DNA from: a virus | Taxonomy: Duplodnaviria; Caudoviricetes | DNA length: 41,989 bases | Reading direction: 5' to 3' (one strand) | IMG/VR virus record: IMGVR_UViG_3300037474_000108 | Coordinates: 1-41,989 of that record | Shown here: positions 10,961 to 39,518 of the stretch, piece by piece | Position numbering within the stretch: position 1 is the first letter of the stretch | Layout of the letters: each line of letters begins with the position of its first letter | The notes under the pieces: model-generated | Database searches by the model: none | The model's input: only the letters and a program-made list of their open reading frames with translations | Told to the model about the DNA's origin: nothing | Program-made: the position numbers and the translations under genes

Positions 10961-11454
10961 CCACAGAGATCGTCGTAGCGACCCGCAGCGGGCTCGCTGA
11001 GGGCCCCGACGGCGCGAAGTACCGCCTCGCCCGCGGCCGGACCCTCGCCGACGCCCGCCACCCGCTCGCCGCCGCGCACCCTGAACTGTTCGCGCCGTAC
11101 ACGATCGACCTGCCGTACGAGGGCGACGAGGCGTCGAGCGCGGCCGGGGCCGACGGATACAAGGGCCCCGACGCGCAGGTTCTCGAAGACGCGCGAGCCA
11201 GCCTCGAAGAGGCGCAGGGAACCGCCGAGCTCTACCGTGCGCAGCTCGCCGCCATCGCCGACGGGCTGCACGAGCGCGGCCTCGTGCCGGCCGACCTCGA
11301 CACCGAGCGCGAGGGCTGGCTCGCCGAGCTCGTGTTCGCGGTCATCGACCGGCAGCAGGCCGGCGCCGAGCCTCAGGTCGAGGCGCCGACCGTCGAGCCC
11401 GGACCGCTCCCGCGCCCGCGCAAGCGCGCGGCGCGCCCCCGGACGGCCGAGTAG
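10957..11454 (+). CDS. Hypothetical protein in the morphogenesis operon
   Basis: AAAGG RBS and ATGA coupling; central coiled coil; basic C-terminus. Confidence 0.65.
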   Translation: MTTEIVVATRSGLAEGPDGAKYRLARGRTLADARHPLAAAHPELFAPYTIDLPYEGDEASSAAGADGYKGPDAQVLEDARASLEEAQGTAELYRAQLAAIADGLHERGLVPADLDTEREGWLAELVFAVIDRQQAGAEPQVEAPTVEPGPLPRPRKRAARPRTAE

Positions 11455-11456
11455 CG

Positions 11457-11831
11457 ATGGCGATCGTCCGCAGGAAGACCGTCACGGTCAAGGGCCTGCC
11501 GAAGCTGCTCGTCAAGCTCGGCCGCCTCGGCGACGTGGTCGACGCCGCGAGCCGCCGCGCGGTCAAGGCCGAGACGTACGACGTGCGCGACGACATGAAG
11601 CGCGGGGCCCCGTTCAAGACGGGCGCCCTGCGCGAGTCGATTCAGGCCGAGTACGACGACAGGGCGATCCGAGGCCGCGCGGTCGCGACCGCGCGGTACG
11701 CCGGCTTCGTCGAGAACGGCACCGACGACACGCGCGCGCAGCCGTTCGCGCAGCCCGCCGCCGAGGTGTCGCGCCGCCGCTTCCCGAAGCGCACGAAGGC
11801 CGAGGTCATTGCGGGGTTGAAGGCGCTATGA
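11457..11831 (+). CDS. HK97 gp10-like tail completion protein
   Basis: APFKTGALRESI..YAGFVENGT..AQPF. Confidence 0.9.
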   Translation: MAIVRRKTVTVKGLPKLLVKLGRLGDVVDAASRRAVKAETYDVRDDMKRGAPFKTGALRESIQAEYDDRAIRGRAVATARYAGFVENGTDDTRAQPFAQPAAEVSRRRFPKRTKAEVIAGLKAL

Positions 11832-12292
11832 GCATCACGATGCACAGTCCGATCACCGCGATTCAGAAGGTCATCGTCGCGACGCTCCGCGGCGATGCCA
11901 CCCTCGCGGCCCTGCTGGCGCCCATCAAGGGCGTCACGCCGAACACGCCGGCTGTTGTCGACCAACCGCCGGAGGGGCAGCTCAAGCCCTACATCCGCGT
12001 CGGCGATCAGCTCTCGATCCCCGATCACGACCACACCTCGGGCGGTCGGGAGGTCACGTGCACCTTGCACGTGTGGACGAAGGAGCGCAGCAGCAAGCCA
12101 GGGCAGACGATCGCCGACCGGGTGACCGAGCTGCTCGACCATCAGGTTGCCTCGTTCTCGGCCCCGCTCGAGGCCCTCGGGCACCGATGCGTGACCATCC
12201 GGCAGGAATTCGATCAGGCGCTCGAAGACCCTGACCCCGAGATCAGGCATCATGTACTCAGGTTCCGCATTCAGACACAGCAGCTCACGTAG
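11828..12292 (+). CDS. Tail terminator (DUF3168-like)
   Basis: IQKVIVATL..DQPP..PYIRVG..LHVW..HHVLRFRI; precedes the major tail gene. Confidence 0.85.
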   Translation: MSITMHSPITAIQKVIVATLRGDATLAALLAPIKGVTPNTPAVVDQPPEGQLKPYIRVGDQLSIPDHDHTSGGREVTCTLHVWTKERSSKPGQTIADRVTELLDHQVASFSAPLEALGHRCVTIRQEFDQALEDPDPEIRHHVLRFRIQTQQLT

Positions 12293-12306
12293 AGGAGGCG
12301 CCGCCG

Positions 12307-12747
12307 ATGAGCGGTCGCGACGGGTTCGGCACGCATTTTCGGCGCGCCACTACGATCACTCCGGGCACCACCTTCGAGACGATCGCCAACGTCACGAACA
12401 TCAAGGGCCCGGACCGCAAGCGGGAGACCATCGACGTCACGGCGCACGACTCGCCGAACGGTTGGATGGAGTTCATCGGCGGGCTCAAGGATGGCGGCGA
12501 GATTCAGCTCGACATCAATTACGACCCCGAGCAGACGACGCACGACCTCGACGACGACTTCGACGACGCCGCGCCGCGCAACTATCGCATCGTCCTGTTC
12601 CCGGGAACCGCCGACGAGTGGACGTGGACCATCAAGGGGATCATGACCAACCTCGGTGACGAGTTCCCGTACGACGACAAGATGGGTCGTAGCATGACCA
12701 TCAAGGTCACGGGCAAGCCTTCGCTCGACCAGTCGAGCGGCAGCTAG
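12307..12747 (+). CDS. Major tail (tube) protein
   Basis: GAGGAGG RBS; ETIDVTAHDS..EFIGGLKDGGE..KVTGKP (lambda-like tube). Confidence 0.92.
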   Translation: MSGRDGFGTHFRRATTITPGTTFETIANVTNIKGPDRKRETIDVTAHDSPNGWMEFIGGLKDGGEIQLDINYDPEQTTHDLDDDFDDAAPRNYRIVLFPGTADEWTWTIKGIMTNLGDEFPYDDKMGRSMTIKVTGKPSLDQSSGS

Positions 12748-13504: not shown

Positions 13505-15616
13505 GTGTCGACTCTCGCTGATCTGCTGATCGAGATCGGTATCGACGTGGACGACGTCCGCAAGGGCGCCAAGACCGTCGGTAACGACCTCTCGAAGGCG
13601 TTCACGAAGGTCGACGGCGTCGCCGGCAAGGCGATCCGCACCCTCGCCGGAATGTCCGCCGTCGTGCCCCTGGCGGGGGGCGCGGCGGCGGGCGTCATCA
13701 GCCTCGGCGCCGCACTCACGGCAGGGGCGGCGGCCGTCGGCGTGTTCGGGGCGGTCACCAAGACCGCGATGACCGACGTCACCGAGGCGGCTACCAAGCA
13801 GCAGGATCTGACCGACAAGATCGCGCTCTACAAGACCGAGGCGCGCCTCGCCGCGAAGGCGGGGCAGGACAATTCGAAGTACCTCAAGAAGCAGGCCGAG
13901 GCGACTCTCGAATTGCAGGCACGGCTGAAGAACCTTCCGCCCGCAACCCGCTCGGCGACCGAGGCTTTCATTCAGCTCAAGTCGGACTGGCAGGATTTCG
14001 TCGAGACGAACAAGCCTGCCGTTTTCGGCATCATGACGCGCGGATACAAGCTCATCGGCTCGACCGTACTGAAGCTCCAACCGCTCTTCGATATCGGCGA
14101 GCGAGCGGTCTCGCGCTTCCTCGGCGCCCTCGAGAACGCTGCCGACGGCGGGTTCATCGACCGCCTGATTGCGCGTGCCGGCCCAGCGATGAACTCGCTC
14201 ACCAATATCGTGCTCAACCTCGGCAAGACCTTCGCCAACATCTTCGGCCGCTTCGGCGCCGAGCAGGGGCAGAGCATCCTGACGTGGCTCGACAACGTCA
14301 CGGCGAAGTGGCTCGTCTGGTCGAATGCGACCGGGCAGAACTCGGGCCTCACGAAGATCGTCGACTACATGCAGAGTGAGGGCCCGAAGCTCGTCACGAC
14401 GCTCGGCGACATCGCGGTTGCCGCCGTCCACATCGCGACCGCGGTCGCGCCCCTGGCGCCCGTCACGACGGCGGTCGCCTCGGCCCTCGCGCAGCTCGTC
14501 GCCGCCGTTCCGCCGAGCTGGATCACTGCGTTCGTCGCGGGCTTCCTTGCGGTCAACGCTGCGATGAAGGTCTACACCGCGTACACGATCGCCGCGCAGG
14601 TCGCGACGAAGGCGGCGGCGGTCGCGCAGGTCGCATGGAAGATCGCCCTCGGCGCCTCGAATTTCGTGCTCGCCTCGGCGCAGGTCGCCGTATACCTCGC
14701 GAAGGTCATCGCCGTCCGCGCCGCGACCGGCCTCGCGGTCGCGGCGCAGGCCCTGTGGAACGCTGCCCTCGTCGCCGGCAACTTCGCCGCGGCGACCGCG
14801 CAGCTCGCCGGTTTCCTCATCAAGCAGGGCGCGATAGCCGTCGCGACGAAGGCGTGGGCCGCCGCTCAGTGGCTGCTGAACATCGCGATGGATGCGAACC
14901 CGATCGGCCTGATCGTTCTCGGCGTCGCTGCCCTGATCGCGGTCATCGTGCTGCTGTGGAACCACAGCGAGGCATTCCGCAAGTTCTGGATCGCCGCGTG
15001 GAACATGATCAAGACTGCGGCGGTCGCTGCGTGGAATTGGATCAAGAATGCTGCGGTCGTCGTCTTCAACTTCCTCGTCGCCGCCGTCAAGAAGTACATC
15101 TCGATCTACGTCGGCGCGTGGAAGCTCGTGGCGAGCGCGGCGATAGCCGCCTGGAATTGGATCAAGACGAAGGCGTCGCAGTTCTTCAATTGGATCCTGT
15201 CCATCCCGAGCAAGATCAACTCGCGCTTGGCGTCGATGTGGAACGGGCTCAAGTCGGGTTTCCGCTCGGCGATCAACTGGGTGATCGGGAAATGGAACTC
15301 GCTGCACTTCTCGATCCCCTCGTTCACCGTGCTCGGCCACACCTTCGGCGGCGGCACGATCGGTGTGCCCGCGATCCCGCAACTCGCCAAGGGCGGCATC
15401 GTCTCGCCTCGCTCGGGCGGCACGATGGTCAACGTCGCCGAGGCGGGCGAGCCCGAGGTCGTCGCGCCGCTGTCGCAGCTTCCCGACCTTGCCGGCCGCG
15501 ACGAGCGGCCGATCGTCGTGCAGATCGTGCCGGGCGGCGAGCAGGAGTTCCGGCGCTGGATCCGTAAGAGCTTCCGCGTGAAGAACGGCGGCAGCGGACA
15601 GGTGGTGCTCGCGTGA
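13505..15616 (+). CDS. Tape measure protein
   Basis: 703 aa, Ala-rich; AAQWLLNIAMDANPIG; ~11-aa Trp periodicity; LAKGGIV..EAGEPEVVAPL. Confidence 0.93.
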   Translation: MSTLADLLIEIGIDVDDVRKGAKTVGNDLSKAFTKVDGVAGKAIRTLAGMSAVVPLAGGAAAGVISLGAALTAGAAAVGVFGAVTKTAMTDVTEAATKQQDLTDKIALYKTEARLAAKAGQDNSKYLKKQAEATLELQARLKNLPPATRSATEAFIQLKSDWQDFVETNKPAVFGIMTRGYKLIGSTVLKLQPLFDIGERAVSRFLGALENAADGGFIDRLIARAGPAMNSLTNIVLNLGKTFANIFGRFGAEQGQSILTWLDNVTAKWLVWSNATGQNSGLTKIVDYMQSEGPKLVTTLGDIAVAAVHIATAVAPLAPVTTAVASALAQLVAAVPPSWITAFVAGFLAVNAAMKVYTAYTIAAQVATKAAAVAQVAWKIALGASNFVLASAQVAVYLAKVIAVRAATGLAVAAQALWNAALVAGNFAAATAQLAGFLIKQGAIAVATKAWAAAQWLLNIAMDANPIGLIVLGVAALIAVIVLLWNHSEAFRKFWIAAWNMIKTAAVAAWNWIKNAAVVVFNFLVAAVKKYISIYVGAWKLVASAAIAAWNWIKTKASQFFNWILSIPSKINSRLASMWNGLKSGFRSAINWVIGKWNSLHFSIPSFTVLGHTFGGGTIGVPAIPQLAKGGIVSPRSGGTMVNVAEAGEPEVVAPLSQLPDLAGRDERPIVVQIVPGGEQEFRRWIRKSFRVKNGGSGQVVLA

Positions 15617-18600
15617 CCTCGGCGATCACGGGCCTCGTCAAGCCTCGCATCGAGATCGCGCCGGGCGGCGACCCTGCCGGCGACCCCTCGCTGTGGCTGT
15701 GGCAGGACGCGGGCAAGCGCCGCGCAAAGGCCGACATCGCGATCACCGCGGGGCGCGACGACGAGGCGAGCGAGGTCGAGGCGGGCTCGCTCAGCACGAC
15801 GATGGACAACCGCGACGGTCGCCTCTCGCCGCGCAACATCCTCGGCAAGTGGTACGGCAGCCTCGGCCGCGGCACGCCGCTGCGCACGGTCCTCGACCGC
15901 GTCAGCGACACGTTCACCCGCACCGTGGCGAGCGGGTGGGGCACGAGCCCGGAGGGGTTCGCGTGGACGGTGAGCGGCGGCACGGCGGCGGTGAACGGCT
16001 CGGCGGCGACGATGGTCCTCGCGACCAACAACGCCACCCGCAACGTCCTGACCGACGCGGGCTCGCCCGACGTCGAAATCGTCTGGTCGACCACGCTGCC
16101 CGTAATGCCGACGGGCGCCGCCTTCGTCTCGGCCGCTCTGCTGCGGCACACCGACGCGAGCAACTACATCCGTGCGCACGTCGAGCTGCAAGCCGCCGGC
16201 ACGGTCGCCGTCAAGGTCCAGCGGGTCTACCTCGGCGCCCAGTCCGATCTGCTCGCGCTCACCGCGACCAGCGTGACCTACTCGGCCGGCACGAAGGTAT
16301 GGGGCAAGGCGCGGGCCGACGGTCCGTACATCATGGTCAAGACGTGGACGGGCGCCCTGACCGACGAGCCGGCCACGTGGCAGGGCGTCACGACCGACGA
16401 CTCGGTCGAGGGCGCGGGCGCCGGGTGGTTTGGCTGGCGGATCAACACGAACGCCGGCACCTACACCGCCAACATCGACGACTTCACGCTTACCAACTTG
16501 CTGTGGTCCGGCAACGTGCCCGAGTGGTCGCCGAGGTGGCCCGAGAAGAGTGGCACCGACTCGACCGTTCCGGTCGCCGCCGCGGGCATCCTGCGGCGGC
16601 TCTCGCAGGGCGCGAGCCCGGTCAAGAGCCCGCTCTACAACCAGCTCTCCTCGATGCCCTCGCGCGGCGTCACGACCTTCGGCTACTACCCGCTCGAGGA
16701 GTCGGCGGGCGCGACCCGCCCCTCCGAGGCGAGCGGCGGCACGCCGGCGAGCGTCTATGACGTGAGCTTCGCCGGCGACGACACGCTCGCCGGCTCGGCG
16801 CCGACCGCCGTGCTCAACACCGCGGCGAGCTCGATCATCAATGTCCCGATCCGCAGCGTCACGAGCGGGTCGTCGACCGGGTTCGCCTGCTTGTGGTTCT
16901 TCCGGATGGACTCGCTCCCCTCGGTCGACACCGAGATGGTCGAGATCAAGGCGGCCGGGACGATGTCCCGCTTCGAGGTGCACGTCGATGCGACCAACGT
17001 CTCGTGGAAGGCCTACGACAACACGAATGCGCTGCTCACCTCGGGCGGCCCGGCGATCTACGTGGTCGACCCGACCAAATGGGTCGCGATGCAGATGGAG
17101 ACCAACGTCTCGGGCGGGACCGTCACGGTTTCGCTCATCTGGCATCAAGTCGGCAGCAGCACGTTCTACGCCCTGAACAACACCTACTCGGGCACCTCGC
17201 AGCGGCCGACGTACTTCTCGATGCTCAGCGGCACCGACAACTGGTCGGCCGCTCATCTGTGGTTCGGCAGCAACGCACTCCCCTTCGTCGACTCGACATT
17301 CATGCTCGTCGCGGACGGCTACCGCGGCGAGGAGGCCGGCACGCGCTTCGCGCGCTTGTGCACCGAGAACAACGTCCCCGCGTACGTGCTCAGCGGCAGC
17401 ACCGAGCCGATGGGCCGGCAACCCATCACGAAGCTCGTCGACCTGCTGCGCGAGTGCGAGGCGGCCGATCAGGCGCTGCTGTGCGAGCGCGGTAACGCGC
17501 TCATGTTCGTCCCGCGCGTGCGCCGGTACAACCCGTCGACCACCCTCGCCCTCGACTGGTCCCTCGGGCACCTCGACGACGCGCCCGAACCGACCGACGA
17601 CGACCAGCGGCTACGGAACCTCATCACGGTCGCGCGGTCGAGCGGCTCGTCGGTCACCCTCTCCGATCAGTCGTCGATCGACGCGACGGGCACGTACGAC
17701 GATAGCGTGACCCTGAACATCGCCTACGACGATCGGCTCACCGACTTCGCCTCGTGGCTGCTCAGCCTCGGCACGGCGGACTATCTACGCTGGCCGAGAA
17801 TCAAGATCAATCTGATTGCGCATCCCGAGCTCATCCCGCAGTGGCTCGCCTGCCGGATCGGCTCGCGGGTGACCGTCGCCAATCCGCCGGCAGCACAGCT
17901 TGCCGGCGAAGTGATCGACGTGCTGATCGAGGGTTTCACCGAGACGATCAACAACTACGAGTGGACGGTTGAGCTCGCCTGCTCGCCCGCTCAGCCATGG
18001 CTCATCGGCACGTACGACGACCCGAGCCATCGGCTCGACGCCGACTCCTACCTCGAACTCGCGATGACCGAGACCGACACGCTCGCGAGCGTGATCGCCG
18101 TGACCCGCGACGGTTTCTGGTCGAGCACGGGCGTCCCGTACGACGTGAAGATCTCGGGGCAGATCAACACGGTCGTCGGCATGAGCCTGCCCGACAGCGT
18201 CGCCACGGGCGACGGCACCTTCGAGAACGGTCTCGGTGGGTGGGTCGCCTCGGGCGGCTCGATCGCGCTCGACACCACCCGGGCCCACACGGGCAGCAAG
18301 TCGGCGAAGCTCACGGTCTCGGGAAGCCCGACGTCGTCGCTCATCCGCGAGCAGGGGCACACGGTCGCGTCGGCACCCGGGCGGACGTATACCGCGTCGA
18401 TGTGGGTCTACTGCTCGGTCAGCCGGAGCGTGACCGCGGTGATCGACTTCTACAACGGCGCGACGTACCTTTCGTCGGCCTTCAACGCGGTCAGCGTCAC
18501 GGCGAACACGTGGACGCTCATCTCGGTCACGAGCGGGGCGGCACCCGCCTCGACGACCCGGATCGAATACGGGCCGACCATGGGCAGCTCGCCCGCCAAC

Positions 18601-23773: not shown

Positions 23774-23802
23774 AACCTAGCAGGTACCTAGCAGGTTTGC
23801 AA
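23774..23802 (-). promoter_or_regulatory. Repeat-type promoter
   Basis: TTGCAA-acctgctaggtacctgc(17)-TAGGTT on the minus strand. Confidence 0.8.
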
Positions 23803-24378: not shown

Positions 24379-24831
24379 TCAATCTCTCCCATCGGAAATG
24401 ATGATCATTGCCCCGGTAGGCCCGCCGGGCGCGGGACGTTCCTTGCCGAGCTCGCGCACTTTCTTGACCTGAGCATCATCCGCGAAGACGCGGGCACCGC
24501 CACTCTTCGCGCCGCCGAGGGGGTCGAGCGTCGCCCTCAGCAGCTTGTCGACGTCCGGCGGCCCGAGAGGCTCGTTGGTGCCTTCGGCGCGGCACTGCTC
24601 GTCGGTCACGTAGAACGTGCACTGCTCGATCACAACTGGCGTGCCGGCCGGGAAGAGCGGGAGCGCGGCGGGCTCGATGCCTGCGCGCTTATACGCCTCG
24701 TACGCGCCGCGCTTGACCGCCTGCCGCCACGCCGGCAGGTAGGCCGACTGTTCGAGAAGCTGCCCCGCGCCGCCGAGGTCTTTCGATCCCTGCGGCGCGG
24801 GGCGGCCGAATACGTAGACGATCAGTCTCAC
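24379..24831 (-). CDS. rusA: RusA-like Holliday junction resolvase
   Basis: GRPAPQGSK, PDVDKLLRATLD, FADDAQV. Confidence 0.88.
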   Translation of the reverse strand: MRLIVYVFGRPAPQGSKDLGGAGQLLEQSAYLPAWRQAVKRGAYEAYKRAGIEPAALPLFPAGTPVVIEQCTFYVTDEQCRAEGTNEPLGPPDVDKLLRATLDPLGGAKSGGARVFADDAQVKKVRELGKERPAPGGPTGAMIIISDGRD

Positions 24832-25721
24832 GGAGCCAGCGGGTGCGGGAACTGCCCCGCGCTCACGAGCTGCAAGTACTGGTTGGCGAGGTTCAGCTCG
24901 TCGTCGGTCGGCGTCGTGATGAACCACGGGTCGTTCTGCTGCGGTCCGGTCTTGACGAGGCGGCCGACGACCGCGCCGGGGGCGCCGTTCGGTCCGCCGC
25001 GCTCGCGTCCGGGCAGGTACGGCGAGCACTGTCCGATGAGCTGCGACTGGTTGAGCCACATGCCCTTGCGCACGTACGGCAGCGGCGAGTAGTCGGTGTG
25101 CGGCGTCGGCGGCAGGCCGTGCGGGTTACCGCCCCAGCCGATCGCGGTCATGTCGCCGACCCGCCCGCCGTCGAGCACGACGACCGTCGCGGTCATCCGG
25201 TCCTGCTCGAGGTTGCCCGACTGCCGGTCGGCGTCGGTCACGAACTTCGCGTTCTTCGGGACGCGCTGCAACATCATCGGGAAGATGACGACGAGACGCC
25301 CGTACATGTCGGCGAGCTTCGCGCCTTTACCGCCACCCGAGACCGGCGGCGGCGGAGCCGACGCGGTACCGAGGGCGGGCGGAGCCTGCTGCTGCTGGTA
25401 GGTGTTGGCGACGTGCTGCTCGTGCGTCACGCCCTGCGGCGGCACGTACGACGGCGTCGGAGCGTGAGGCTGCCCGTACAGCCCCGGTCCGGTCTGCTGT
25501 GGCGCGTACGCCTGCGGCGCGGGTGCCGCCTGCTGCTGCGCGAACGGGTTGCCCGCGGCGGGCGCCTGCTGCTGCGGCGCGTACGCCTGCGGGGCCTGCT
25601 GCGGGGCGGCGGGTGCCGCCTGCTGCGCGAACGGGTTGTTCGGCGCCTGCTGCTGCGCGGGCGCCGCCGGCTGGGCGGTCTGGGCCGGCACGTTGTTCGC
25701 GAACGGGTTCGGGTGACTCAT
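24828..25721 (-). CDS. Probable ssDNA-binding protein with Q/A/P-rich NPF-repeat N-terminus
   Basis: Between exonuclease and RusA; beta-rich C-domain GRLVVIFP..ATVVVLDG..VVGRL..PW. Confidence 0.55.
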   Translation of the reverse strand: MSHPNPFANNVPAQTAQPAAPAQQQAPNNPFAQQAAPAAPQQAPQAYAPQQQAPAAGNPFAQQQAAPAPQAYAPQQTGPGLYGQPHAPTPSYVPPQGVTHEQHVANTYQQQQAPPALGTASAPPPPVSGGGKGAKLADMYGRLVVIFPMMLQRVPKNAKFVTDADRQSGNLEQDRMTATVVVLDGGRVGDMTAIGWGGNPHGLPPTPHTDYSPLPYVRKGMWLNQSQLIGQCSPYLPGRERGGPNGAPGAVVGRLVKTGPQQNDPWFITTPTDDELNLANQYLQLVSAGQFPHPLAP

Positions 25722-25767
25722 GCTGCCTGCTTTCGTTTCCGTGACGTGGGCACTGTTGCCCTGGTCG

Positions 25768-25871
25768 GGGGGCGGGCGGGATTCGAACCCGCGATCTCTG
25801 CCGGTAACGCGAGGTGTCGTGACCTTCCGTGCGTTCAACCGTCGGCGCATACGCCAGCATGCTGCCGCCCC
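25768..25871 (-). ncRNA. tRNA-like RNA with expanded, non-canonical anticodon arm
   Basis: Acceptor GGGGCGG/CCGCCCC; D arm GCAT-GCTGGCGT-ATGC; variable AGATC; T arm GCGGG-TTCGAAT-CCCGC; ~31 nt longer than a standard tRNA. Confidence 0.7.
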
Positions 25872-25928
25872 TTGTCGCCCCCGGGCCACGGTCTCTGTTG
25901 GCTCGAAACCCGAGGGCGAGTACATGGA

Positions 25929-25950
25929 ACCCTAGCAGCTACCTGCTAGG
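25929..25950 (-). promoter_or_regulatory. Repeat-type promoter/operator with inverted halves, upstream of the tRNA-like RNA
   Basis: CCTAGCAG-ctac-CTGCTAGG at 25931-25950; -10 TAGGGT at 25929-25934; -35 weak. Confidence 0.6.
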
Positions 25951-27310
25951 CAGGCACCCCCTGCGCCCATCCGCAGGCGCACTTGCCCGAGGTGTGCATC
26001 GCCCGCTGCGGACATTCGATCTGCCGACGGCGGGCGTCGGCCGCCTCGGCGACGCGACCGCCCCACGTCCGCCCGATCGTGTTGACGTAGATGTCCCACG
26101 TCTTCGCGAGGTCGTCGAGCGTGCCGGCCGACCACACGGCGTCGATCGCCTGCCGATCGACGTCGTCGAGCGTGCCGCCCGCGGCGGGCTTCCACTCGAC
26201 GTTGCCGTCGGGCCGCCGAGTGGCGACCTGCGCGGCGCCCGCGTAGTTGGCGGCTACCGCCTGCTCGGTGAGCATCTGCGCGGGCGCGGGCCGCTTGATG
26301 TTCGGCATCGGGACGAACCACGCCCCCGGCTCGCCGAGCTTCGCCTTCGCGGCGGTCTCCCGCTTCGCCTGCTGGTACGCCGCCTTCGCGCCTTCCCACC
26401 CCTCGACGAGGTTGACGAAGTACGGTTCGGCCGCGCCGTCGGCGACGTGGACGACGACGCCGACGTCCTGCCGGACGCAGGGGGTCGGGACGTACTCCCC
26501 GGCGGGCATCTCGACCTCGTCGCCCGAGACCGAGAAACGCACCTTGACCGTGCCGCCGGTCGGCCGCCACATCCGCCGCGCCCGAGAGTAGATCGCGAGC
26601 TGCGGCGCGATGTGCAACCCGTTGAGCCACGGCTGCGACTCGCTCTTCACGTCGGCGATCACGGGCAGCTCGCCGAGACCGTCGGGCAGGAAATGCGGAT
26701 CGCGCGGGTCATGCCCCCCGTGACCGTGCTGGCACTGTCCCGGCCCGAGCAGGGCGGCAAGGCCCGGAATCTCGGTCACCCGGTCGAAGGTCCCGGCGAC
26801 CGGGCCGAGCTCGTCGCAGACGACCGTCCGCTCGATCTCGACCGTGCTCCACCCGTTCTCGCGGACGAGGAAGTCGTACGCCCGCAGGATGCTCGCGGCG
26901 GTCGCCGGCAGGCCCCGCGTGACGCTGTCGATGTCCTCGCCACGGTCGAGCCGCTCGGTGAGGTCGTGCAGCGCCGTGCCGGCCCGCGCGCCGTCCCGCT
27001 GTTTGGCGGCGGTCATCGCGTCCTTCACGATGCCGCCGAGCTTCTTTTTCGCCTCGGTCGACCAGCCCGTCACCGGGTCCGGGCGCCCCATCGCCTTGAC
27101 CGCGAGCACGAGGTCGTCACGGATGGCCAGCCCCTCGGCGACCTGCCGCAGCTTCCACTGATCGAGGTTGTACGTGTCGGTCTCGATGTACTTGAGCAGC
27201 TTGCTCACGCGGCGGTATTCGTTGCCCTCGTGGTCGCGGTACCAGCCCCAGCGACCGCCGGTCGGCATCGACCCCGGCGCGGGCGCCGCTGCGGTTATGG
27301 CTTGTGTCAT
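25946..27310 (-). CDS. PD-(D/E)XK (Cas4/RecE-like) exonuclease
   Basis: GTALHDLTE, VAGTFDRV, IADVKS, QLAIY; AGGGGAG RBS. Confidence 0.85.
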   Translation of the reverse strand: MTQAITAAAPAPGSMPTGGRWGWYRDHEGNEYRRVSKLLKYIETDTYNLDQWKLRQVAEGLAIRDDLVLAVKAMGRPDPVTGWSTEAKKKLGGIVKDAMTAAKQRDGARAGTALHDLTERLDRGEDIDSVTRGLPATAASILRAYDFLVRENGWSTVEIERTVVCDELGPVAGTFDRVTEIPGLAALLGPGQCQHGHGGHDPRDPHFLPDGLGELPVIADVKSESQPWLNGLHIAPQLAIYSRARRMWRPTGGTVKVRFSVSGDEVEMPAGEYVPTPCVRQDVGVVVHVADGAAEPYFVNLVEGWEGAKAAYQQAKRETAAKAKLGEPGAWFVPMPNIKRPAPAQMLTEQAVAANYAGAAQVATRRPDGNVEWKPAAGGTLDDVDRQAIDAVWSAGTLDDLAKTWDIYVNTIGRTWGGRVAEAADARRRQIECPQRAMHTSGKCACGWAQGVPA

Positions 27311-27323
27311 CTCTCCCCTGTTC

Positions 27324-27584
27324 CTATTCCTCGACCTCGAAGCCTGCCGCGCGGAACGCGGCGGCGAGTCCGGCCTTCGTATTGGAGCCGCAATCACAGC
27401 AGCGGTCGGCTTCCTGGTCCTCGAACGCGACCACCGTCTCGGGTGTGATCCGCACGCGGGTCGCGGTCTCGATAGCATCCTCGACGGCGGGCATCCCGGT
27501 CGTGGTGTCGATGCTCGCGAGACCGTCGTGGTACGCCTCACGGGCGCGCTGCCGACGCTCGGCGAGCGGGTCGTCGGCGCTCAT
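27324..27584 (-). CDS. Hypothetical protein
   Basis: ATGA coupling; ends AAAFRAAGFEVEE. Confidence 0.6.
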   Translation of the reverse strand: MSADDPLAERRQRAREAYHDGLASIDTTTGMPAVEDAIETATRVRITPETVVAFEDQEADRCCDCGSNTKAGLAAAFRAAGFEVEE

Positions 27585-28937: not shown

Positions 28938-28967
28938 ACGCTAGCAGGTACCTAGCAGCTTTCGCAA
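28938..28967 (-). promoter_or_regulatory. Leftward repeat-type promoter of the divergent pair
   Basis: TTGCGA-aagctgctaggtacctgc(18)-TAGCGT. Confidence 0.75.
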
Positions 28968-29422: not shown

Positions 29423-31873
29423 ATGACAGACCCTGAAAGGCAGGATAGCGGTCTCGGACCTTTCGGACGAGCTGCTCGGCTGTACCGGTCTGCCGGATGG
29501 CCCGGGACGCTGCCGGTCGGCCGAGGCCCCGGGCAGAAGTCACCACCCCCGGGCGGGTGGACCGGACACGGGGCGCCGTACCCGTCGGACGCCGACGTCG
29601 GCGTGTGGGAGACGGGCCCCGAGGCGTACTACAACCTCGGCCTACGGATGCCCGAGGGCGTCATCGGCCTCGACATCGACGCGGGTTACGCCGGCAAGAC
29701 CGGCGACGCCACGCTTGCCGAGCTCGAAGCGCGTCTCGGCCCGCTGCCGGCGACGTGGGTATCGAGCGCGCGGCCCGCGCCGTCGGGCATCCGGTTCTTC
29801 CGCGTGCCGGCCGAGCTCGACGGCATGCCGGTCAACTGGCCGGGCGAGGCGGGAAAGTACATCGAGCTCATTCAACCCGGACACCGGTACGCGGTCGTCT
29901 GGCCGAGCACGAACCCCGACGCGGGCGGCGCGCCGTACGAGTGGCGGTACGAGCTCGGCCCGCATCAAGCGGTGATGACCACCGGTGCCCTGCCGTCGCC
30001 GCAGGCCCTCGCCGAGCTGCCCGAGGCATGGGTGCGCGGGCTCATGCTGCCGTACGAGCGTACGGAGAAGAGCGACCTCGCGCTCGGCCAGATGGCTGAA
30101 TGGTGGGACGCGCTGCGGCGCGGTGCGCCTTGCCCACTTATCCACAGCGTGTGGACGAAGGCTGTGCACGACCTCGAACACGAGGGCGGGGCGCGGCACG
30201 AGACCGCCCGCGACGCGGTCTCGTCGGTCGTGCGCGCGGGCGGCGAGGGGCACCGTGGCGCGCCCGAGGCGGTTCAGGCGATCCGGGCAGCCTTCGAGCG
30301 GGCGGTCGGCGCCGAGCGGGCGAACGGCGGCGAATGGGACCGCTTGCTGTCCGGTGCCGTGAAGATCGCCGCGAGTGACAACCCGATGCCGCGGGCGATG
30401 TGCTCGCACGACATCCCCGAGGCGACCGGCCTGTCAGGCGAGGCCCTCGCGGGTTTTACGTCGCCCGGGGCGATCTCCCCCATGGCGCCCCCCGCCATGA
30501 TCACCCCGGGCGCGCTGACACTACCTGACGAGTTCTGGACGGCGCGTGAGTCCCTGTCCCGTGTGCGGCAGGCGGCACACTCCCGCGTGCGCTCGGCCGA
30601 CGTCGTGTTCTACGGGACGCTCGTACGGCTCGCCGCCATGGCACCGCACACGCTGCGCGCGGACACCGGCATCGGCACGCCGGCAAGCCTGAACCTGTTC
30701 ACGGCGGTCGTCGGGCCTTCGGGCAGCGGCAAGTCGTCGGGCCTGTCCGTCGCCCGCGACATCATCAAGTCCGACAGCTCGCTCGAGGAGGCCCCGCTCG
30801 GCAGCGGCGAGGGCGTGGCCGAGGCGTACATGGGCGAGGCGCTCGAAGGCACGGGCGTCATGGCGAAGGACGGCAGCGAGAAGCAGGTCAAGGTGCGCAA
30901 GCAGGTGCGGCACAACGTGCTGTTTCACAGCGACGAGGGCGCCAGCCTGAACAAGCTCATCGAGCGCGCCGGCAGCACGGTCGGCGAGACGCTGCGCTCG
31001 GCATGGTCCGGCGAGACGATCGGGCAGAAGAACGGGCGCGCCGAGACCACGCGGACCGTGCCGGCCCGCTCCTACTCGTGCGGGCTCGTCATCGGCTACC
31101 AGCCCTCGACCGTGCTGCCGCTGCTCGCCGACCACGAGGCGGGCACCCCGCAGCGGTTCCTGTTCTGCTGGTCCGAGGACGACACGATCCCCACGCGGTC
31201 GGCGAAGGTCATGTGGCCCGGCGAGATGCCGAACCCGTTTCCGGCGAGCGTGCCGACGAGCTCGCCCGCGGCTGCCGGCGGCTTCGTCGTCGGGCCGGCA
31301 CGCGGGTACGAGACGATCGTCTTCGCCGAGCCGATCCTCGACGAGCTGTACGACATCGAGCACGCGAAGAACACCGGCGCGCTGCCGGATGATCACCCGC
31401 TGCGTGACCCGTTCCGCTCGCAGCACCCCGTACTCAAGGTCAAGGTGTCCTCGGTGCTCGCGCTGCTCGAAGGGCGCCGCAACGTGACGCCGGACGACTG
31501 GCAGCTCGCGCAGATCGTCCTCGACACCTCCGATCGGGTACGGCTGCACTTGCAGGCCATCGCGCAGGAGGCGGCGGGAAAAGCGCGGGCCGCCTTCCTG
31601 GCGGCCGAGGCTGAGGCGGAGCACTTCCGGGCGCACGCCCGCTCGGCGGTCGCCGAGGCGCTCGATCTGACCGCCGAGCGGCGCGTCGCGGTACGGCTTG
31701 CGCAGAAGGTGCACGACAGCGGGCCGATGACGCTCGGCGGTCTGCGCAAGACGCTCGCGGGGCGCGACAAGCATCTGACCGAGTCCGCGATCGACATCGC
31801 CATGAGCGCCGGATGGATCGTGCCGGCCGAGGGCGACCGCCTGTTCGGCCCTGGCTCGGCGAGGCCCGTATGA
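29423..31873 (+). CDS. Bifunctional primase-polymerase fused to a P-loop helicase-like domain
   Basis: NLGLRMP..VIGLDID, GIRFFRVP, IELIQ-x-HRYAVVWPS; Walker A GPSGSGKS; HSDEG; GTPQRFL; GGGAGAG RBS. Confidence 0.88.
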   Translation: MTDPERQDSGLGPFGRAARLYRSAGWPGTLPVGRGPGQKSPPPGGWTGHGAPYPSDADVGVWETGPEAYYNLGLRMPEGVIGLDIDAGYAGKTGDATLAELEARLGPLPATWVSSARPAPSGIRFFRVPAELDGMPVNWPGEAGKYIELIQPGHRYAVVWPSTNPDAGGAPYEWRYELGPHQAVMTTGALPSPQALAELPEAWVRGLMLPYERTEKSDLALGQMAEWWDALRRGAPCPLIHSVWTKAVHDLEHEGGARHETARDAVSSVVRAGGEGHRGAPEAVQAIRAAFERAVGAERANGGEWDRLLSGAVKIAASDNPMPRAMCSHDIPEATGLSGEALAGFTSPGAISPMAPPAMITPGALTLPDEFWTARESLSRVRQAAHSRVRSADVVFYGTLVRLAAMAPHTLRADTGIGTPASLNLFTAVVGPSGSGKSSGLSVARDIIKSDSSLEEAPLGSGEGVAEAYMGEALEGTGVMAKDGSEKQVKVRKQVRHNVLFHSDEGASLNKLIERAGSTVGETLRSAWSGETIGQKNGRAETTRTVPARSYSCGLVIGYQPSTVLPLLADHEAGTPQRFLFCWSEDDTIPTRSAKVMWPGEMPNPFPASVPTSSPAAAGGFVVGPARGYETIVFAEPILDELYDIEHAKNTGALPDDHPLRDPFRSQHPVLKVKVSSVLALLEGRRNVTPDDWQLAQIVLDTSDRVRLHLQAIAQEAAGKARAAFLAAEAEAEHFRAHARSAVAEALDLTAERRVAVRLAQKVHDSGPMTLGGLRKTLAGRDKHLTESAIDIAMSAGWIVPAEGDRLFGPGSARPV

Positions 31874-31874
31874 C

Positions 31875-32076
31875 GGGGACGCGGGGACGGAACGGGGACG
31901 GGGACAGAAGGGGGACATGTCCCCGCCGGGGTCTCTCTCTCGCGCGTTACGTGAGTCAATAATTTTCCTTCCTTCCTTATATATCCGCTGCTCAGACGCC
32001 AAATACTCTCCGTGCAAGATCCGTCACTTTTCAATTTCACCGAGGACGGACGGGGACATGTCCCCGAAATGTCCCC
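31875..32076. other. Putative replication origin
   Basis: GGGGAC iterons; GGGGACATGTCCCC palindromes at 31911-24 and 32052-65 flanking an AT-rich core; directly after Prim-Pol. Confidence 0.7.
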
Positions 32077-32101
32077 GCTCACCAAGATCGGAAAGGCACC
32101 C

Positions 32102-32473
32102 ATGATGATCGTCAACTGCACCCCGCACGCCATCGACGTCTACCCGTCCGACGTCCCGGGCATCGTCGACCCGCAGCGGCACACGCCGCTGTTCACCTTC
32201 GAGCCGAGCGGCGTCGTCGCCCGCCTCGCCGAGCAGGTTCTCGACGACCTGCGGCTCGCGCCCCGCGTCGGCGCCGAGGCGGTCAAGATCACGCGGGTGG
32301 AGTACGGCCACGCGATGGACCTGCCCGACGTGAAGCCGAAGACGTGGTACCTCGTCAGCCTGCCGGTTGCGCTCGCGCTGCCCGGCCGCCGCGACCTGCT
32401 CGTCAGCTACCGGCAGGTGCGCAACGCGGCCGGCACGGTCGTCGGCTGCCGCGGCCTCGCGCGGCCGGAGTAG
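32102..32473 (+). CDS. N-x-TPH family small protein, possible Crn4-like ring nuclease
   Basis: IVNCTPH..PSG-x-AR..LP..YLVS..R-x-DLL..VRN-x-G-x-VVGCRGL; AAAGG RBS. Confidence 0.55.
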   Translation: MMIVNCTPHAIDVYPSDVPGIVDPQRHTPLFTFEPSGVVARLAEQVLDDLRLAPRVGAEAVKITRVEYGHAMDLPDVKPKTWYLVSLPVALALPGRRDLLVSYRQVRNAAGTVVGCRGLARPE

Positions 32474-32482
32474 GTTCGCGTC

Positions 32483-32761
32483 ATGGGAGAGACCGTCAGG
32501 CACACGCACAAGATCGACGACGCGCAGTTCGCCGCCTTCATCGAGGCGATCAGCGCGCCACTCGCCCCGCCGGCAGACACCGTGCCGGCGAGAACCCCGT
32601 ACGACCTCGGGCTTGAGCCGTGGACGTTCCACGACCCGAGCCAGAAAGTCGACGTGATGGCCTACATCGACGACCGCAACCAAGTACGCCACGTCCCGAC
32701 CACCCGCACCTCCGAGGTGCCGAAGGCGTGGCGGCGTGTATGGATCGAGCCGAGAGGGTAA
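32483..32761 (+). CDS. Hypothetical protein
   Basis: Operon position and coding-like composition. Confidence 0.6.
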   Translation: MGETVRHTHKIDDAQFAAFIEAISAPLAPPADTVPARTPYDLGLEPWTFHDPSQKVDVMAYIDDRNQVRHVPTTRTSEVPKAWRRVWIEPRG

Positions 32762-32770
32762 CCACAGGTC

Positions 32771-32983
32771 ATGACCACTGCTAACGACCAGCAGGACAAC
32801 GAGTACGGACAGCCGTCCGTCGTCGCCGAGACCCTGCACGGCGACAAGGCCCGCGCGGAAGAGCACCCGCAGCCCGACGCGGTCGCGATGGAGACGCCGA
32901 CGCTCGTCGCGCGGCCCGGTCGCGACACCGACGCCGCCGACCCCGACACCGAGACGGGCGCCGGCCGCACCTCCCAGCGGTAA
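32771..32983 (+). CDS. Acidic hypothetical protein
   Basis: Operon position before a terminator. Confidence 0.55.
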   Translation: MTTANDQQDNEYGQPSVVAETLHGDKARAEEHPQPDAVAMETPTLVARPGRDTDAADPDTETGAGRTSQR

Positions 32984-33023
32984 CCTCCCCCTCTCTGATC
33001 ACCTCCCCCCCCCTCGGGAAATT

Positions 33024-33050
33024 GAGGCCCCGGTCGCAAACCGGGGCCTC
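33024..33050 (+). terminator. Intrinsic terminator-like hairpin
   Basis: GAGGCCCCGGT-cgcaa-ACCGGGGCCTC. Confidence 0.75.
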
Positions 33051-33057
33051 TCTCGTG

Positions 33058-33087
33058 TTGCAAAACCTGCTAGGTACCTGCTAGGCT
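33058..33087 (+). promoter_or_regulatory. Repeat-type promoter
   Basis: TTGCAA-aacctgctaggtacctgc(18)-TAGGCT. Confidence 0.8.
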
Positions 33088-33121
33088 CGTACCTACAAAG
33101 GCAAGCGACAAGGGAGACGAC

Positions 33122-34171
33122 ATGAGCCGCAAGATCACCTTTCCGGTAGTCAGCACCGCTGGCGGCGTGACCATCCGCCGCAACTCCGAGACGGGCGTCG
33201 AGATCCACTCGGTCAAGCTGGACCGGGGCGGTTATGAGCACAGCGTTTACGTCCCCCGGCTGAGCAATGACGGCATGCGCTTCGAGGATTGGTTCGGCGA
33301 GCTGAGCAACGCCCGCGCCCGCGCCTTTGACGAGGCCGAGATGATGCGCGAGGTCATCGCCGAGGCCTACGACGCCGCCGCCAAGGCCGAGGAGCAGGGC
33401 AACGCCGACATCGAGCGTGCCATGGTCGCCACCGTCCTCGGTCGCGGTTTCACGGTCGAGGGTGACACCTACACCCACCCCAGCGGCGTCGTGATCGCCC
33501 CCGCCTACGCCGAGTTCGGCGAGTACGAGGTGCGCATCGAAGGCCACCCGCACGCGACCGTCACCTATGACACGTTCGCCGAGGCGGCCGACGAGGCGCT
33601 CGGGGTGGCGTACAGCCTCGGCAGCGCGATCCCCGCCGCCGCCGAGGCCGAGCCGCTGACCGAGCGCGCCCGCAAGCAGTTCCCCAGTGTCGCCGCCATG
33701 CTTGACGCCGAGACCGTCGCGCACAACGAGACGCAGGCCCCCGCCACGGTCGCGACGATCGTCGGCCGCATCCCGGTCGCCTCCCGCACGGGCCTCGTCG
33801 CGAAGATGATCCGCAGCGCCGATACCGCTTGCACCCCCTTTGACGCGGTCAAGTTCGCGCAGGCCGCGCTCGATCTGTACGAGGCCGAGGGCACCGTTCC
33901 CGCCGACGCGGTCGCTCCCACGGCGACCGAGTTCGCCCCCGTGACCGAGCACCTCTGCCTCAACGTGCGCTTCCGCGACGACTTCTCGGAGGAGCTGCGC
34001 GGCATGGTCTTCGAGGTGGACACCCTCAGCCGCCGCGCCGCCGAGGGCGGCTACCGCTTCGTCGGCATCCGGGTCAAGCTGAATGGTCGCTGGCGCTACC
34101 GGCTGGCGAAGCTCGACGACCTGCGCACCGTTGACGGTCGCCGCGTCACCGCCGACCCCACCCTCGACTGA
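33122..34171 (+). CDS. Hypothetical protein (349 aa), probable early gene
   Basis: AAGGGAG RBS; first gene after the repeat promoter. Confidence 0.8.
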   Translation: MSRKITFPVVSTAGGVTIRRNSETGVEIHSVKLDRGGYEHSVYVPRLSNDGMRFEDWFGELSNARARAFDEAEMMREVIAEAYDAAAKAEEQGNADIERAMVATVLGRGFTVEGDTYTHPSGVVIAPAYAEFGEYEVRIEGHPHATVTYDTFAEAADEALGVAYSLGSAIPAAAEAEPLTERARKQFPSVAAMLDAETVAHNETQAPATVATIVGRIPVASRTGLVAKMIRSADTACTPFDAVKFAQAALDLYEAEGTVPADAVAPTATEFAPVTEHLCLNVRFRDDFSEELRGMVFEVDTLSRRAAEGGYRFVGIRVKLNGRWRYRLAKLDDLRTVDGRRVTADPTLD

Positions 34172-34227: not shown

Positions 34228-34875
34228 ATGGCAACCGAAGCGACCACCATCCGCCGCACCGACGCCGTGCTCGACGCCGTCGAGACCGCTTGGCGGACGA
34301 CGTCCTACCTCGACGGCAAGCTGTACGACCGGGGCTTCACGTGGGGCCCGAAGGACACCCGCACCACGCTGCACGCCCTGCACGGGGCCGGTCAGGTCAA
34401 GCGGCAGCGGGCGGGCAGCGGCTACCGCTGGCGCAAGGCCGAGTCCGAGGGCCTCGCCGGGTCGCCCGTGCACGCCGCCGACATGACCCCGTTGCCCGTG
34501 GCCGCGTCCGACGCCCTGCTCGGCCTGTCCGTTCAGATCACCCGCCTCGCCGAACAGCTCGCGCAACCGGCGGTCCGCCCCTACGACCCCGAGGCGGTCG
34601 TCATCGGCACCGACGCGGCCCTCGGCACGCTCGTGACCGCGAACCACGACCTCGTCGCCCGCATCGTGAAGCGCGCCGTCTACCAGGCCGGCAAGGCGCT
34701 GCTCGACGTGCTCGACGGCTGGATCGAGGGCGCGGTCAGCAACAACGAGGCGATGGGCCGCCGCGACGCCGCCGACCCTGAGCTCTTCCACGCCGCCGAC
34801 ATCCGCACGATGGTCAATGACGCGATGCGCCTCATGGGCGCGCCTGAGCACCGTATCCCGCAGGGCGGCGAGTGA
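34228..34875 (+). CDS. Hypothetical protein, possible N-terminal winged helix
   Basis: GGGAGAG RBS; TRTTLHALHGAGQVKR..GYRWRK. Confidence 0.7.
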   Translation: MATEATTIRRTDAVLDAVETAWRTTSYLDGKLYDRGFTWGPKDTRTTLHALHGAGQVKRQRAGSGYRWRKAESEGLAGSPVHAADMTPLPVAASDALLGLSVQITRLAEQLAQPAVRPYDPEAVVIGTDAALGTLVTANHDLVARIVKRAVYQAGKALLDVLDGWIEGAVSNNEAMGRRDAADPELFHAADIRTMVNDAMRLMGAPEHRIPQGGE

Positions 34876-35309
34876 TGGCGCGCCCCGAACTCGGCACCCT
34901 CGCCAAGGGCGACATCGTCATCGTTCGCGACCGCCGTCGCGGCTCGGGCGCCGACCGCACCGCACGCGAGTTCCGGGTCGTCACGCTCGGCCCGAAGTGG
35001 GTCGGCCTGATCGACGTCGGCAACAGGTGGGCCGGCACGCCCGACGAGCGCCTGTATATCCGCCGCTTCCTGCTCGCCGACCAGCGCGAGGGCGCACCGG
35101 GCACGCGCGTCGGATACGGCACGTACTTCGCCACCCGCGAGCAGCACGCGTACGACGTCCGGATTGCCGAGGCCGAGGCCTACGTCCGCGACGTCGCGGG
35201 CCTCGACGTCCGCCGCGGCGACGTCCCCTTCGCGGGTGACGACGGCATCCTCAAGCTCGCGCACCTACTCAGCCTGATGGAGTCGTCGTGGCGACCGCCG
35301 CCCGCCTGA
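34875..35309 (+). CDS. Hypothetical protein
   Basis: TGATG coupling. Confidence 0.7.
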   Translation: MARPELGTLAKGDIVIVRDRRRGSGADRTAREFRVVTLGPKWVGLIDVGNRWAGTPDERLYIRRFLLADQREGAPGTRVGYGTYFATREQHAYDVRIAEAEAYVRDVAGLDVRRGDVPFAGDDGILKLAHLLSLMESSWRPPPA

Positions 35310-38375: not shown

Positions 38376-39485
38376 ATGTCCAGATTCAAGAAGGGGATCG
38401 CGCTCGCGGTCTCCCTGCTCGCGGTCGCGCTCGGCGTCGCGAGTCCCGCGCAGGCGAAGGTGCCGGACTGGGACGCGGCGCCCGCAGCGACCTTCGTGCA
38501 GACGCCGCCCGGGAAGATCACCTTCGACCCGGTGCAGGTCGCCCGCGTCGAGCAGGCGACGCGGGCCGGCACGCGGCCGAGCCCGTTCGGTAAGGACGGC
38601 AAGCGGCTCGTGCCGCCGTCGCCATTCCTCGGCGCCGGCTGGTACCACGCGGGCGCTCAGATGGTGCTCGGCGGTACCGACTTCGCCCGCGGCATGTCCG
38701 TCACGGCGTCGGTGCACACCCAGTACGCCGACCCCGGCGCGTCGATGACGACCGGCTACAGCCACTCGATCTTCGAGATGGCGGTCACCGAGTCGAGTAC
38801 AGCGAAGAACAGCGTCGAGTACGGCTGGGCGAACGAGAAGAGCGCCTTCGGCGACAACAAGCCGCGCCTGTTCGCCGCGTCGTGGCGGGGCGGTACATGG
38901 AACGGCTGCTACGACGGGCACGACCCGTCGTGCTTGTGGATCGACAACACGTCGGCGACCCCGAACCTCGGTGACGACCTGTCGGCGGTCGCCGGCACGG
39001 CCTACCCGAACAACTCGATCAAGCTTCAGATGTTCTGGTCGGCGACCAACTGCGGTCCGGCGGCGTCCGGGTGGTTCCTGGTCTACAGCACCGGCGCGGG
39101 CACCCCGACCACGATCGGATGCTTCACGCCGAACGCGGTCAACTCGATGTCCAACATCAAGATCATGCAGCCCTTCGGCGAGTACTACTACAACGGTACG
39201 AACTACGCCGGCACGAGCAACGACAAGCCGCTCGGCGACATGGGCAACGGGCAGTACCCCGCGAGTTCGATCAGCTCGACCGGACCGGCGTGGATGGCCA
39301 GCCTCGGCCTGATCAACCCGAGCCCGAGCACGCTGACCGCGTTCTTCACGCGCACGACGCCCGAGGACGCGGCAGCGTACGACATCACTGCGGTCGGCAC
39401 CTCGGGCCGCAACTTCACGTACGGCGGCGGCGGCTACAAGCTGTCCGGCGGCGTGATGGTCACGCCCGGAAATGTCGGCCCGTAG
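38376..39485 (+). CDS. Secreted neprosin-like (glutamic peptidase G3) protein
   Basis: Sec signal ending AQA; HSIFEMAV, NSVEYGW, PRLF, GCY, GWFL, FGEY, DMGNGQYP. Confidence 0.75.
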   Translation: MSRFKKGIALAVSLLAVALGVASPAQAKVPDWDAAPAATFVQTPPGKITFDPVQVARVEQATRAGTRPSPFGKDGKRLVPPSPFLGAGWYHAGAQMVLGGTDFARGMSVTASVHTQYADPGASMTTGYSHSIFEMAVTESSTAKNSVEYGWANEKSAFGDNKPRLFAASWRGGTWNGCYDGHDPSCLWIDNTSATPNLGDDLSAVAGTAYPNNSIKLQMFWSATNCGPAASGWFLVYSTGAGTPTTIGCFTPNAVNSMSNIKIMQPFGEYYYNGTNYAGTSNDKPLGDMGNGQYPASSISSTGPAWMASLGLINPSPSTLTAFFTRTTPEDAAAYDITAVGTSGRNFTYGGGGYKLSGGVMVTPGNVGP

Positions 39486-39488
39486 GCC

Positions 39489-39518
39489 TTGCGAAACCTG
39501 CTAGGTACCTGCTAGGGT
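39489..39518 (+). promoter_or_regulatory. Repeat-type promoter
   Basis: TTGCGA-aacctgctaggtacctgc(18)-TAGGGT. Confidence 0.8.

Follow-up and report, generated by a model that had tools for sequence, protein, structure and literature searches.

Phage RNAs that are shaped like tRNAs and unable to decode have reportedly been on record since the species 1 and species 2 RNAs of phage T4, for which we know of no function. These two RNAs (rnaC and rnaD; NC_000866) are described as small stable phage RNAs that arise from a tRNA-cluster transcript (PMC2330249). The predicted fold of species 1 places a T arm and long hairpins within an acceptor-like closure. YrlA, which is found in actinobacteria and mycobacteriophages, has D and T arms like those of a tRNA, a 15:48 pair that covaries and no anticodon arm (PMC4201824), and the TLD-only RNA of Mycobacterium phage DS6A and the TLD of tmRNA are likewise tRNA-like without an anticodon stem-loop (PMC4131195, PMC11915505). 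Plant mitochondrial t-elements are tRNA-like structures at the 5' ends of mRNAs and have been proposed to serve as RNase P/Z signals (PMC1920247), and the allo-tRNAs and irregular polycistrons recovered from soil include irregular cloverleaves that are unused in translation (PMC5389517). An engineered counterpart, the tRNA scaffold, keeps the acceptor, D and T arms of a tRNA and carries a foreign hairpin in place of the anticodon stem-loop (PMC3753655).

We analyzed a window of 41,989 nt from a soil phage, the whole stretch of the virus record IMGVR_UViG_3300037474_000108 (completeness 98%), which encodes siphovirus head and tail proteins and a leftward block containing an exonuclease, a PHROG 870 protein, a RusA-like resolvase and a methyltransferase. 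As its portal and exonuclease match those of actinobacterial phages at ~30% identity, the host is probably an actinomycete, and we regard the phage as an uncultured, probably actinobacterial siphovirus. The window also encodes a Neprosin-domain protein (PF03080, E 1e-11; 38376-39485, plus strand), two glycosyltransferase-like genes within the head-tail connector module (9525-10960, plus strand) and a phage ProQ C-terminal-like domain (PF24203, barely above the cut-off; 34872-35309, plus strand) that may be a candidate RNA-binding partner.

An RNA cassette between the exonuclease and PHROG 870 genes contains a 104-nt tRNA-shaped unit, the predicted fold of which is a tRNA top half enclosing a non-canonical arm, as in the T4 species 1 and 2 type. 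The T4 RNAs lie among real tRNAs, whereas the window cassette has no canonical tRNA and precedes a protein gene. Unlike YrlA, which is described as permuted (T before D), with a closed acceptor loop, a 5'/3' stem that binds Ro60 and a location beside the Ro60 gene (PMC4201824), the window unit has the normal tRNA order. Allo-tRNAs and tRNA-Sec have 8/4, 9/3 or 13-bp branches with long variable arms and anticodons, while the window unit has a 7/5 branch with neither. The t-elements are organellar, and a conserved displayed arm is not described in the portion of the source that we cite (PMC1920247). The engineered scaffold is artificial, whereas the phage units are natural and carry several recurring arm types.

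The gene that follows the cassette had been called SSB-like in a first-pass annotation of this DNA. Its start codon lies at 25721. The likeness to SSB is weak: the protein belongs to PHROG 870, a family of unknown function, and its closest structural neighbours, OB folds that include PRD1 P12 and T4 gp32, score Z 3.9-4.4, short of what the tool counts as reliable. Foldseek returned no match at E 0.001, a PDB sequence search returned none, and matches to the protein were absent from cultured phages and from GTDB genomes.

To collect related loci, we searched IMG/VR and JGI metagenomes with the two proteins that flank the cassette; the same search of GTDB genomes gave zero related loci. The 28 cassettes share one order, in which the exonuclease gene is followed by an optional small gene, the palindromic repeat, a leader hairpin, the RNA units, a ribosome-binding site and the PHROG 870 gene. 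They range from 111 to 640 nt in length, and their RNA part holds zero to two parser-detected tRNA-like units with other structured RNA. The near-palindromic 18-bp repeat gives 10 strand-matches at 6 places in the whole genome, against 0.02 expected (positions 98-116, 23776-23795, 25931-25950, 28940-28958, 33066-33085 and 39497-39516 of the window), and is kept ahead of the cassette in related phages. With its right half read as an extended -10 box, the repeat reads as a combined operator and promoter. The TAGRNT of this box is present in 27 of the 28 cassettes and visible in the 28th too, its final T being a position that was not selected for; a sigma-70 scan gave no promoter site.

The leader hairpin is the most constant part of the cassette. 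It shows two-sided changes at 11 of 13 consensus pairs across 17 loci, is present at three loci without a tRNA-like unit (L003, L011 and L017), has no Rfam counterpart and may be an independent RNA. Closer to the coding region, the small hairpin would lie at the very 5' end of the mRNA after processing. Both hairpins had been predicted in the first pass, one as an 11-bp stem and the other as GGGCA/TGCCC, and both were found. At other loci we observed a second conserved structured RNA of ~200 nt, with a covarying hairpin, 3' of the last tRNA-like unit (minus strand; L005:1930-2130, L010:3270-3480, L038:1000-1200 and L081), which had no Rfam match at gathering score.

Table 1. Positions in the window of the parts of the RNA cassette and of the genes on either side
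Feature	Position	Strand	Remarks
Upstream exonuclease gene, bounds the RNA cassette	25946..27541	minus	homology to actinobacterial phages
Near-palindromic repeat (operator/promoter, as read from sequence)	25931..25950	minus	one of six genomic sites
Predicted extended -10 box TG-C-TAGGGT	25929..25937	minus	right half of the repeat
Leader hairpin, 11-13 bp; arms 25919-25909 / 25885-25875	25875..25919	minus	z -3.23
tRNA-shaped unit, 104 nt; discriminator C25768, without encoded CCA	25768..25871	minus	
Acceptor stem, 5' strand; pairs with 25775-25769	25865..25871	minus	7/7 pairs
D arm, predicted 6 bp with UGGC loop	25847..25862	minus	pair probability 0.88
Bulged 47-nt arm in the anticodon-arm position	25800..25846	minus	covarying in six other units
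Conserved tip GUYACGAC	25816..25823	minus	centred in 7/7 long-arm units
T arm, 5 bp with UUCGAAU loop	25776..25792	minus	
3' trailer CGA: C74 and G75	25765..25767	minus	C74 as in all parsed actinomycete tRNA genes
Small hairpin before the ribosome-binding region	25748..25761	minus	GGGC/GCCC here, GCGC/GCGC in homologues
Gene after the cassette (PHROG 870), weakly SSB-like with a predicted OB-like fold	24828..25721	minus	start codon 25721

The minimum-energy fold of positions 25871-25768 is a cloverleaf. The 7-bp acceptor stem and the T arm claimed in the first-pass annotation are present with every acceptor pair formed. The letters assigned there to the D arm, the variable loop and the bulged arm of ~47 nt are also in place, but each reading needed revision: the D arm is more probably 6 bp closed by UGGC (probability 0.88 for all six pairs) than 4 bp with an 8-nt loop, the linker between the long arm and the T stem is 7 nt (AGAGATC) rather than the 5 nt AGATC, and the arm region alone is no stabler than its shuffles (z +0.54). 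Folding z-scores against shuffles were -0.81 for the 104-nt unit, -0.71 for 241 nt and -3.23 for the leader hairpin; the folding energy of the window unit alone is not above chance, and only the leader hairpin stands out. The unit rises above chance because of its homologues, as a T-arm/acceptor unit was found in 23 of the 28 homologous cassettes and in none of 200 rounds of shuffled cassettes. The five cassettes without a parser unit are L001, L003, L011, L017 and L025; since both ARAGORN and Rfam call a unit in L001, four of 28 keep the promoter and the SSB-like gene without one. T-loop variants caused the strict parser to miss the units of L001, L027 and L005.

We aligned 18 parsed units, a set that leaves out three scoring <26 (the first unit of L020, L031 and a 128-nt parse of L073) and one spurious parse in a terminase gene, and that counts the near-duplicates L009/L044; these are also in the set of 28, as are L007/L026. 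In the elbow, 282 of 288 stem cells pair, a pairing partly selected by the parser, and two-sided changes occur at 12 of 16 pairs. The 15:48 tertiary pair, which was not selected for, is A-U in seven units and G-C in nine. U8, A14, A21 and the 15:48 pair are kept in 16 of the 18 units, and, as judged from this alignment, selection acts on the elbow. Two units depart from this pattern: the window copy, which has C8, G14, U21 and C15/C48 and so lacks all four features, and L073, the only other C8 unit. As the D stem is extended in both, we favor a second structural solution over decay.

The ends of the units resemble those of host tRNA genes in some respects and differ in others. C74 follows the discriminator as in all 67 parsed actinomycete tRNA genes, C74-G75 follows 22 of 28 phage units compared to 12 of 67 host tRNA genes, and a CCA is encoded by none of the phage units compared to 15 of 67 host genes. 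The discriminator itself may be A, U, C or G. The acceptor and T stems of the window unit are identical to those of a CAU-anticodon tRNA (Ile2 or elongator Met) from the actinomycete Jidongwangia; among the 35 tRNAs parsed there, no other has this acceptor. A blastn search of 50,697 cultured phage records with the element and three related units or cassettes gave T-arm matches to ordinary tRNAs or nothing, and no unit was found in the 36 kb of Thermobifida phage P1312 that was searched (best E 0.65).

The window unit was compared with described RNA families. ARAGORN and Rfam had been named in the first pass as checks; ARAGORN finds nothing in the window and Rfam nothing at gathering score, while many relatives pass the Rfam tRNA score through the elbow. 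A canonical tRNA (RF00005) shares with the unit a 7-bp acceptor and a 5-bp T stem with a TΨC loop, but this assignment was rejected given the 47-nt arm, the missing U8, A14, A21 and 15:48 pair, and the lack of a gathering score or ARAGORN call. A Y-RNA-like scaffold had also been suggested, a proposal that did not hold up: the arms are in normal rather than permuted order, YrlA (presumably RF02565) gives no Rfam hit, and no TROVE/Ro60 gene was found in 25 phage records, 11 of them near-complete, a search of phage records that leaves a host-encoded Ro60 possible. Assignment to tmRNA or a TLD-only RNA was rejected as G3·U70 occurs in none of the 18 units, the D stem is paired, and neither ARAGORN nor Rfam makes a tmRNA call. 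The only Rfam match in the window was to tRNA-Sec (RF01852) at E 6.2 (15.1 bits, cut-off 47). Although the window D arm is predicted to have the 6-bp stem and 4-nt loop described for tRNA-Sec (PMC7609411), the 7/5 branch, the 7-nt linker and the absence of an anticodon loop led us to reject this assignment as well.

A canonical anticodon arm (5-bp stem, 7-nt loop, U33, purine 37) was found in none of the 18 units, while the same parsing of unrelated phage tRNA clusters found one in 9 of 15. The anticodon slot is instead occupied by recurring arm types, namely short arms with a CACUYG loop, a 6-7-bp stem with a GU-GCRA-AC tip, tetraloop stubs, branched slots of 65 nt and the long arm seen in the window; arm length ranges from absent (a 58-nt unit, L327) to 76 nt. 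Seven long-arm units are known: the window, L005, L015, L038 and L049, the last four found by gene order, and L325 (found by its tip motif) and L326 (found by a tRNA search of its record), both of which belong to phages outside the window's group. Apart from one variable pyrimidine, the tip GUYACGAC is the same in all seven, at a distance of 43-48 nt from the 5' end and 45-48 nt from the 3' end. Among 120 other long-slot viral units listed it occurs once, in a unit that is itself one of the seven.

Long-arm units show two-sided changes at 18 of 30 pairs, including 9 of 12 arm-stem pairs; none of 500 shuffles scored as high, and slid controls gave 4-8 pairs. Because it comes from seven related sequences, we regard this covariation as suggestive and not as a significance test, and the two tip pairs never vary and carry no covariation information. 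The window copy is the most divergent of the seven and fits the consensus arm register worst. With these arm-stem changes and no random decay, the first-pass proposal of a non-decoding tRNA mimic stands. The tip can be drawn in all seven units as two pairs closing a YACG tetraloop, or in six of seven as a 7-nt loop that has U33 and presents a Val triplet (UAC or CAC). We prefer the tetraloop since the GNRA arm type varies between GCAA and GCGA, keeping its loop while the would-be anticodon changes.

Pattern searches recovered few further examples of the long arm. A first tip pattern gave seven matches, two of which are members, and a tighter one applied to IMG/VR gave three, consisting of one known member and two chance matches. 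With the long-arm pattern in GTDB genomes, eight of the 120 matches listed had a paired T arm and none had a long-arm cloverleaf by eye. A model of the seven units matched T4 rnaC only at E 0.14 and did not match rnaD, and homology is not shown. The window unit would work like the T4 species 1 and 2 RNAs, whether or not they are homologous. As a separate observation, viral contigs of IMG/VR often carry tRNA bodies with a long arm slot (an estimated ~2,300 stretches); the 120 matches listed (L204-L323) contain 99 distinct units with paired acceptor and T stems, some of which are ordinary tRNAs with long variable arms.

Comparison of close relatives shows how the units change. Between the window and L007 the flanks are identical at 55/60 and 46/50 positions and the unit at 52/104, and between L001 and L027 the flanks are identical at 60/60 and 49/50 positions and the unit at 53/74, with different arms. 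These alignments show whole units exchanged between near-identical flanks, and in the cassettes compared the unit is an accessory, dispensable part. These arm types are also seen in phages outside the group; a GNRA-tip unit in another phage group lies between a RecE/YqaJ-type exonuclease and the next gene, and two other phage records contain arrays of 6-7 different units.

Our leading reading of the window unit, to which we give a rough probability of 0.45, is a gene for a non-decoding tRNA-shaped RNA that is excised by host tRNA-maturing enzymes and acts in trans as a stable, tip-displaying decoy. A decoy was among the first-pass suggestions, as was the processing signal considered below. Transcription would start at ~25922 from the extended -10 box, and the unit would be cut from the early transcript of the SSB-like gene by RNase P cleavage before G25871 and 3' trimming after C25768, with subsequent CCA addition giving an RNA of 104-107 nt. 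Precedents exist for this route, as M. smegmatis YrlA is reported to be cut by RNase P and to gain CCA (PMC4201824), and engineered tRNA bodies with a replaced anticodon arm are reported to be processed and stable in E. coli (PMC3753655). The tRNA body would give stability and the variable arm specificity, and the RNA would bind a host factor that reads tRNAs, with a defence toxin or sensor directed at tRNAs as the most likely partner. Toxins of this sort that attack the acceptor end have been described, one of them anti-phage (PMC9712102, PMC7450476).

We place a decoy against tRNA-directed defence first because an accessory, hypervariable and promoter-proximal element with a conserved displayed tip fits an arms race. 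Counting against it, other structured RNAs lie between units in the longer cassettes, and, as the arm ranges from absent to 76 nt, the elbow alone is the common part, as expected in a processing tag. The divergence of the window copy, with its weak arm region, poor fit to the arm register and missing U8, A14, A21 and 15:48 pair, also counts against it. No cognate protein for a decoy was found in the phage. Assembled contigs from two RNA runs, which hold a small share of the region, do not cover 25728-25947, and this is not evidence of absence; matches in RNA runs X5 and X8 and in DNA runs X2 and X3 were short and scattered, and none of the pieces spans the unit. A broader claim, which we hold as doubtful, is that the cassette is an RNA-only counter-defence locus of soil actinophages, made of promoter-proximal natural tRNA scaffolds with exchangeable display arms (the GUYACGAC long arm, GU-GNRA-AC, CACUYG and branched types). 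Unrelated phages might exchange them much as they do anti-CRISPR genes, and each would neutralise a different host toxin or sensor that is directed at tRNAs.

The alternative that survives best, possible though somewhat unlikely in our estimate, is that the unit is a processing tag in cis, with a body that directs only RNase P cleavage and 3' trimming and an arm that is filler. It would release the leader hairpin and the RNAs beside it and define where the SSB-like mRNA begins, as plant mitochondrial t-elements are described to do (PMC1920247). This fits the acceptor and T arm being the sole parts common to all units, the alternation of units with other structured RNAs, and the location of the unit, the 3' end of which lies 46 nt before the start codon with the conserved small hairpin next. 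Filler, however, would not preserve an invariant tip and covarying stems in phages that are unrelated, a generic cut site is not expected to be swapped wholesale or arrayed in differing versions, and 4/28 cassettes manage with no unit at all.

It is unlikely that the RNA instead acts in trans on ordinary host machinery, titrating a synthetase, a modifying enzyme, a RelA-type sensor or a ribosomal site and thus retuning host translation or the stringent response. The exact match of the acceptor and T stem to the host CAU tRNA would suit such a target, as would the Val-triplet reading of the tip in 6/7 units, and inhibition of tmRNA has been reported for a tmRNA fragment of the DS6A kind (PMC4131195). 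Varied discriminators and the lack of G3·U70 nevertheless mean that no single charging identity is kept, and core targets would not drive rapid swapping.

We consider it improbable that the family is functional while the window copy drifts under relaxed selection. The weak arm, the loss of U8, A14, A21 and 15:48, and an Rfam tRNA score below threshold where relatives pass are what drift would produce, yet the two-sided changes in the D arm lengthen its stem to 6 bp, the D stem of L073 is extended too, and nothing is lost from the acceptor, T arm, G18G19, tip or C74. Three further readings are largely refuted and scarcely credible: an intron-bearing ordinary tRNA, a relic of an integration site, and the 5' portion of a longer protein. 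ARAGORN calls anticodons at related loci and an open frame (24828-25925) runs through the unit into the SSB-like gene. However, none of the seven long-arm units gains a canonical arm by loop deletion, a search of the window and its ten relatives for a tyrosine integrase found none (0/11 records), and only 7 of 26 cassettes have the frame open, while L007, the nearest relative, has it closed.

The literature that we searched, which included few subscription papers, yielded no description of this tRNA-mimic family. A set of 10,006 viral RNA candidates from IMG/VR includes some that are tRNA-like (PMC10690425). We conclude that the family is real and apparently undescribed, although those candidates could contain parts of it; the kind, a non-decoding phage tRNA-shaped RNA, is already known but unexplained. 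The present family offers a comparative handle that the T4 species 1 and 2 RNAs lacked, with a fixed slot, units present or absent, recurring arm types and covarying stems that carry an invariant tip. Should the units prove to be decoys, they would represent counter-defence by RNA against immunity that targets tRNAs, and the tRNA scaffold employed in RNA production would have a natural version. At 11 of the 28 related loci ARAGORN reports a tRNA gene, in most cases with a Lys, Glu, Arg, Cys or Pro anticodon, and such labels on non-decoding units would mislead studies of codon usage by phage tRNAs.

A cultured phage with a unit in the equivalent gap makes the question open to experiment. Actinoplanes phage phiAsp2, a cultured relative of the GNRA-tip group, has an unannotated 340-nt gap between its RecE-like exonuclease and pas50 (39084-39424; L335:2085-2425) that contains a degenerate unit, with a T-arm/acceptor and no normal D arm. 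A conserved motif after the tRNA-like unit of phiAsp2 (39254-39329; L335:2255-2330), L079 and L082 can be drawn as an H-type pseudoknot and is a possible ribozyme or nuclease block. Outside the cassette, a phage of the window's group has a unit with two hairpins in the arm slot (L324:984-1078; G005 12483-12577). Arrays of 4-7 units with different arms are present in G018 (31018-33207), G019 (10234-12573) and G020 (15359-18015), where no parsed unit has a canonical anticodon arm and one unit of 58 nt is armless.
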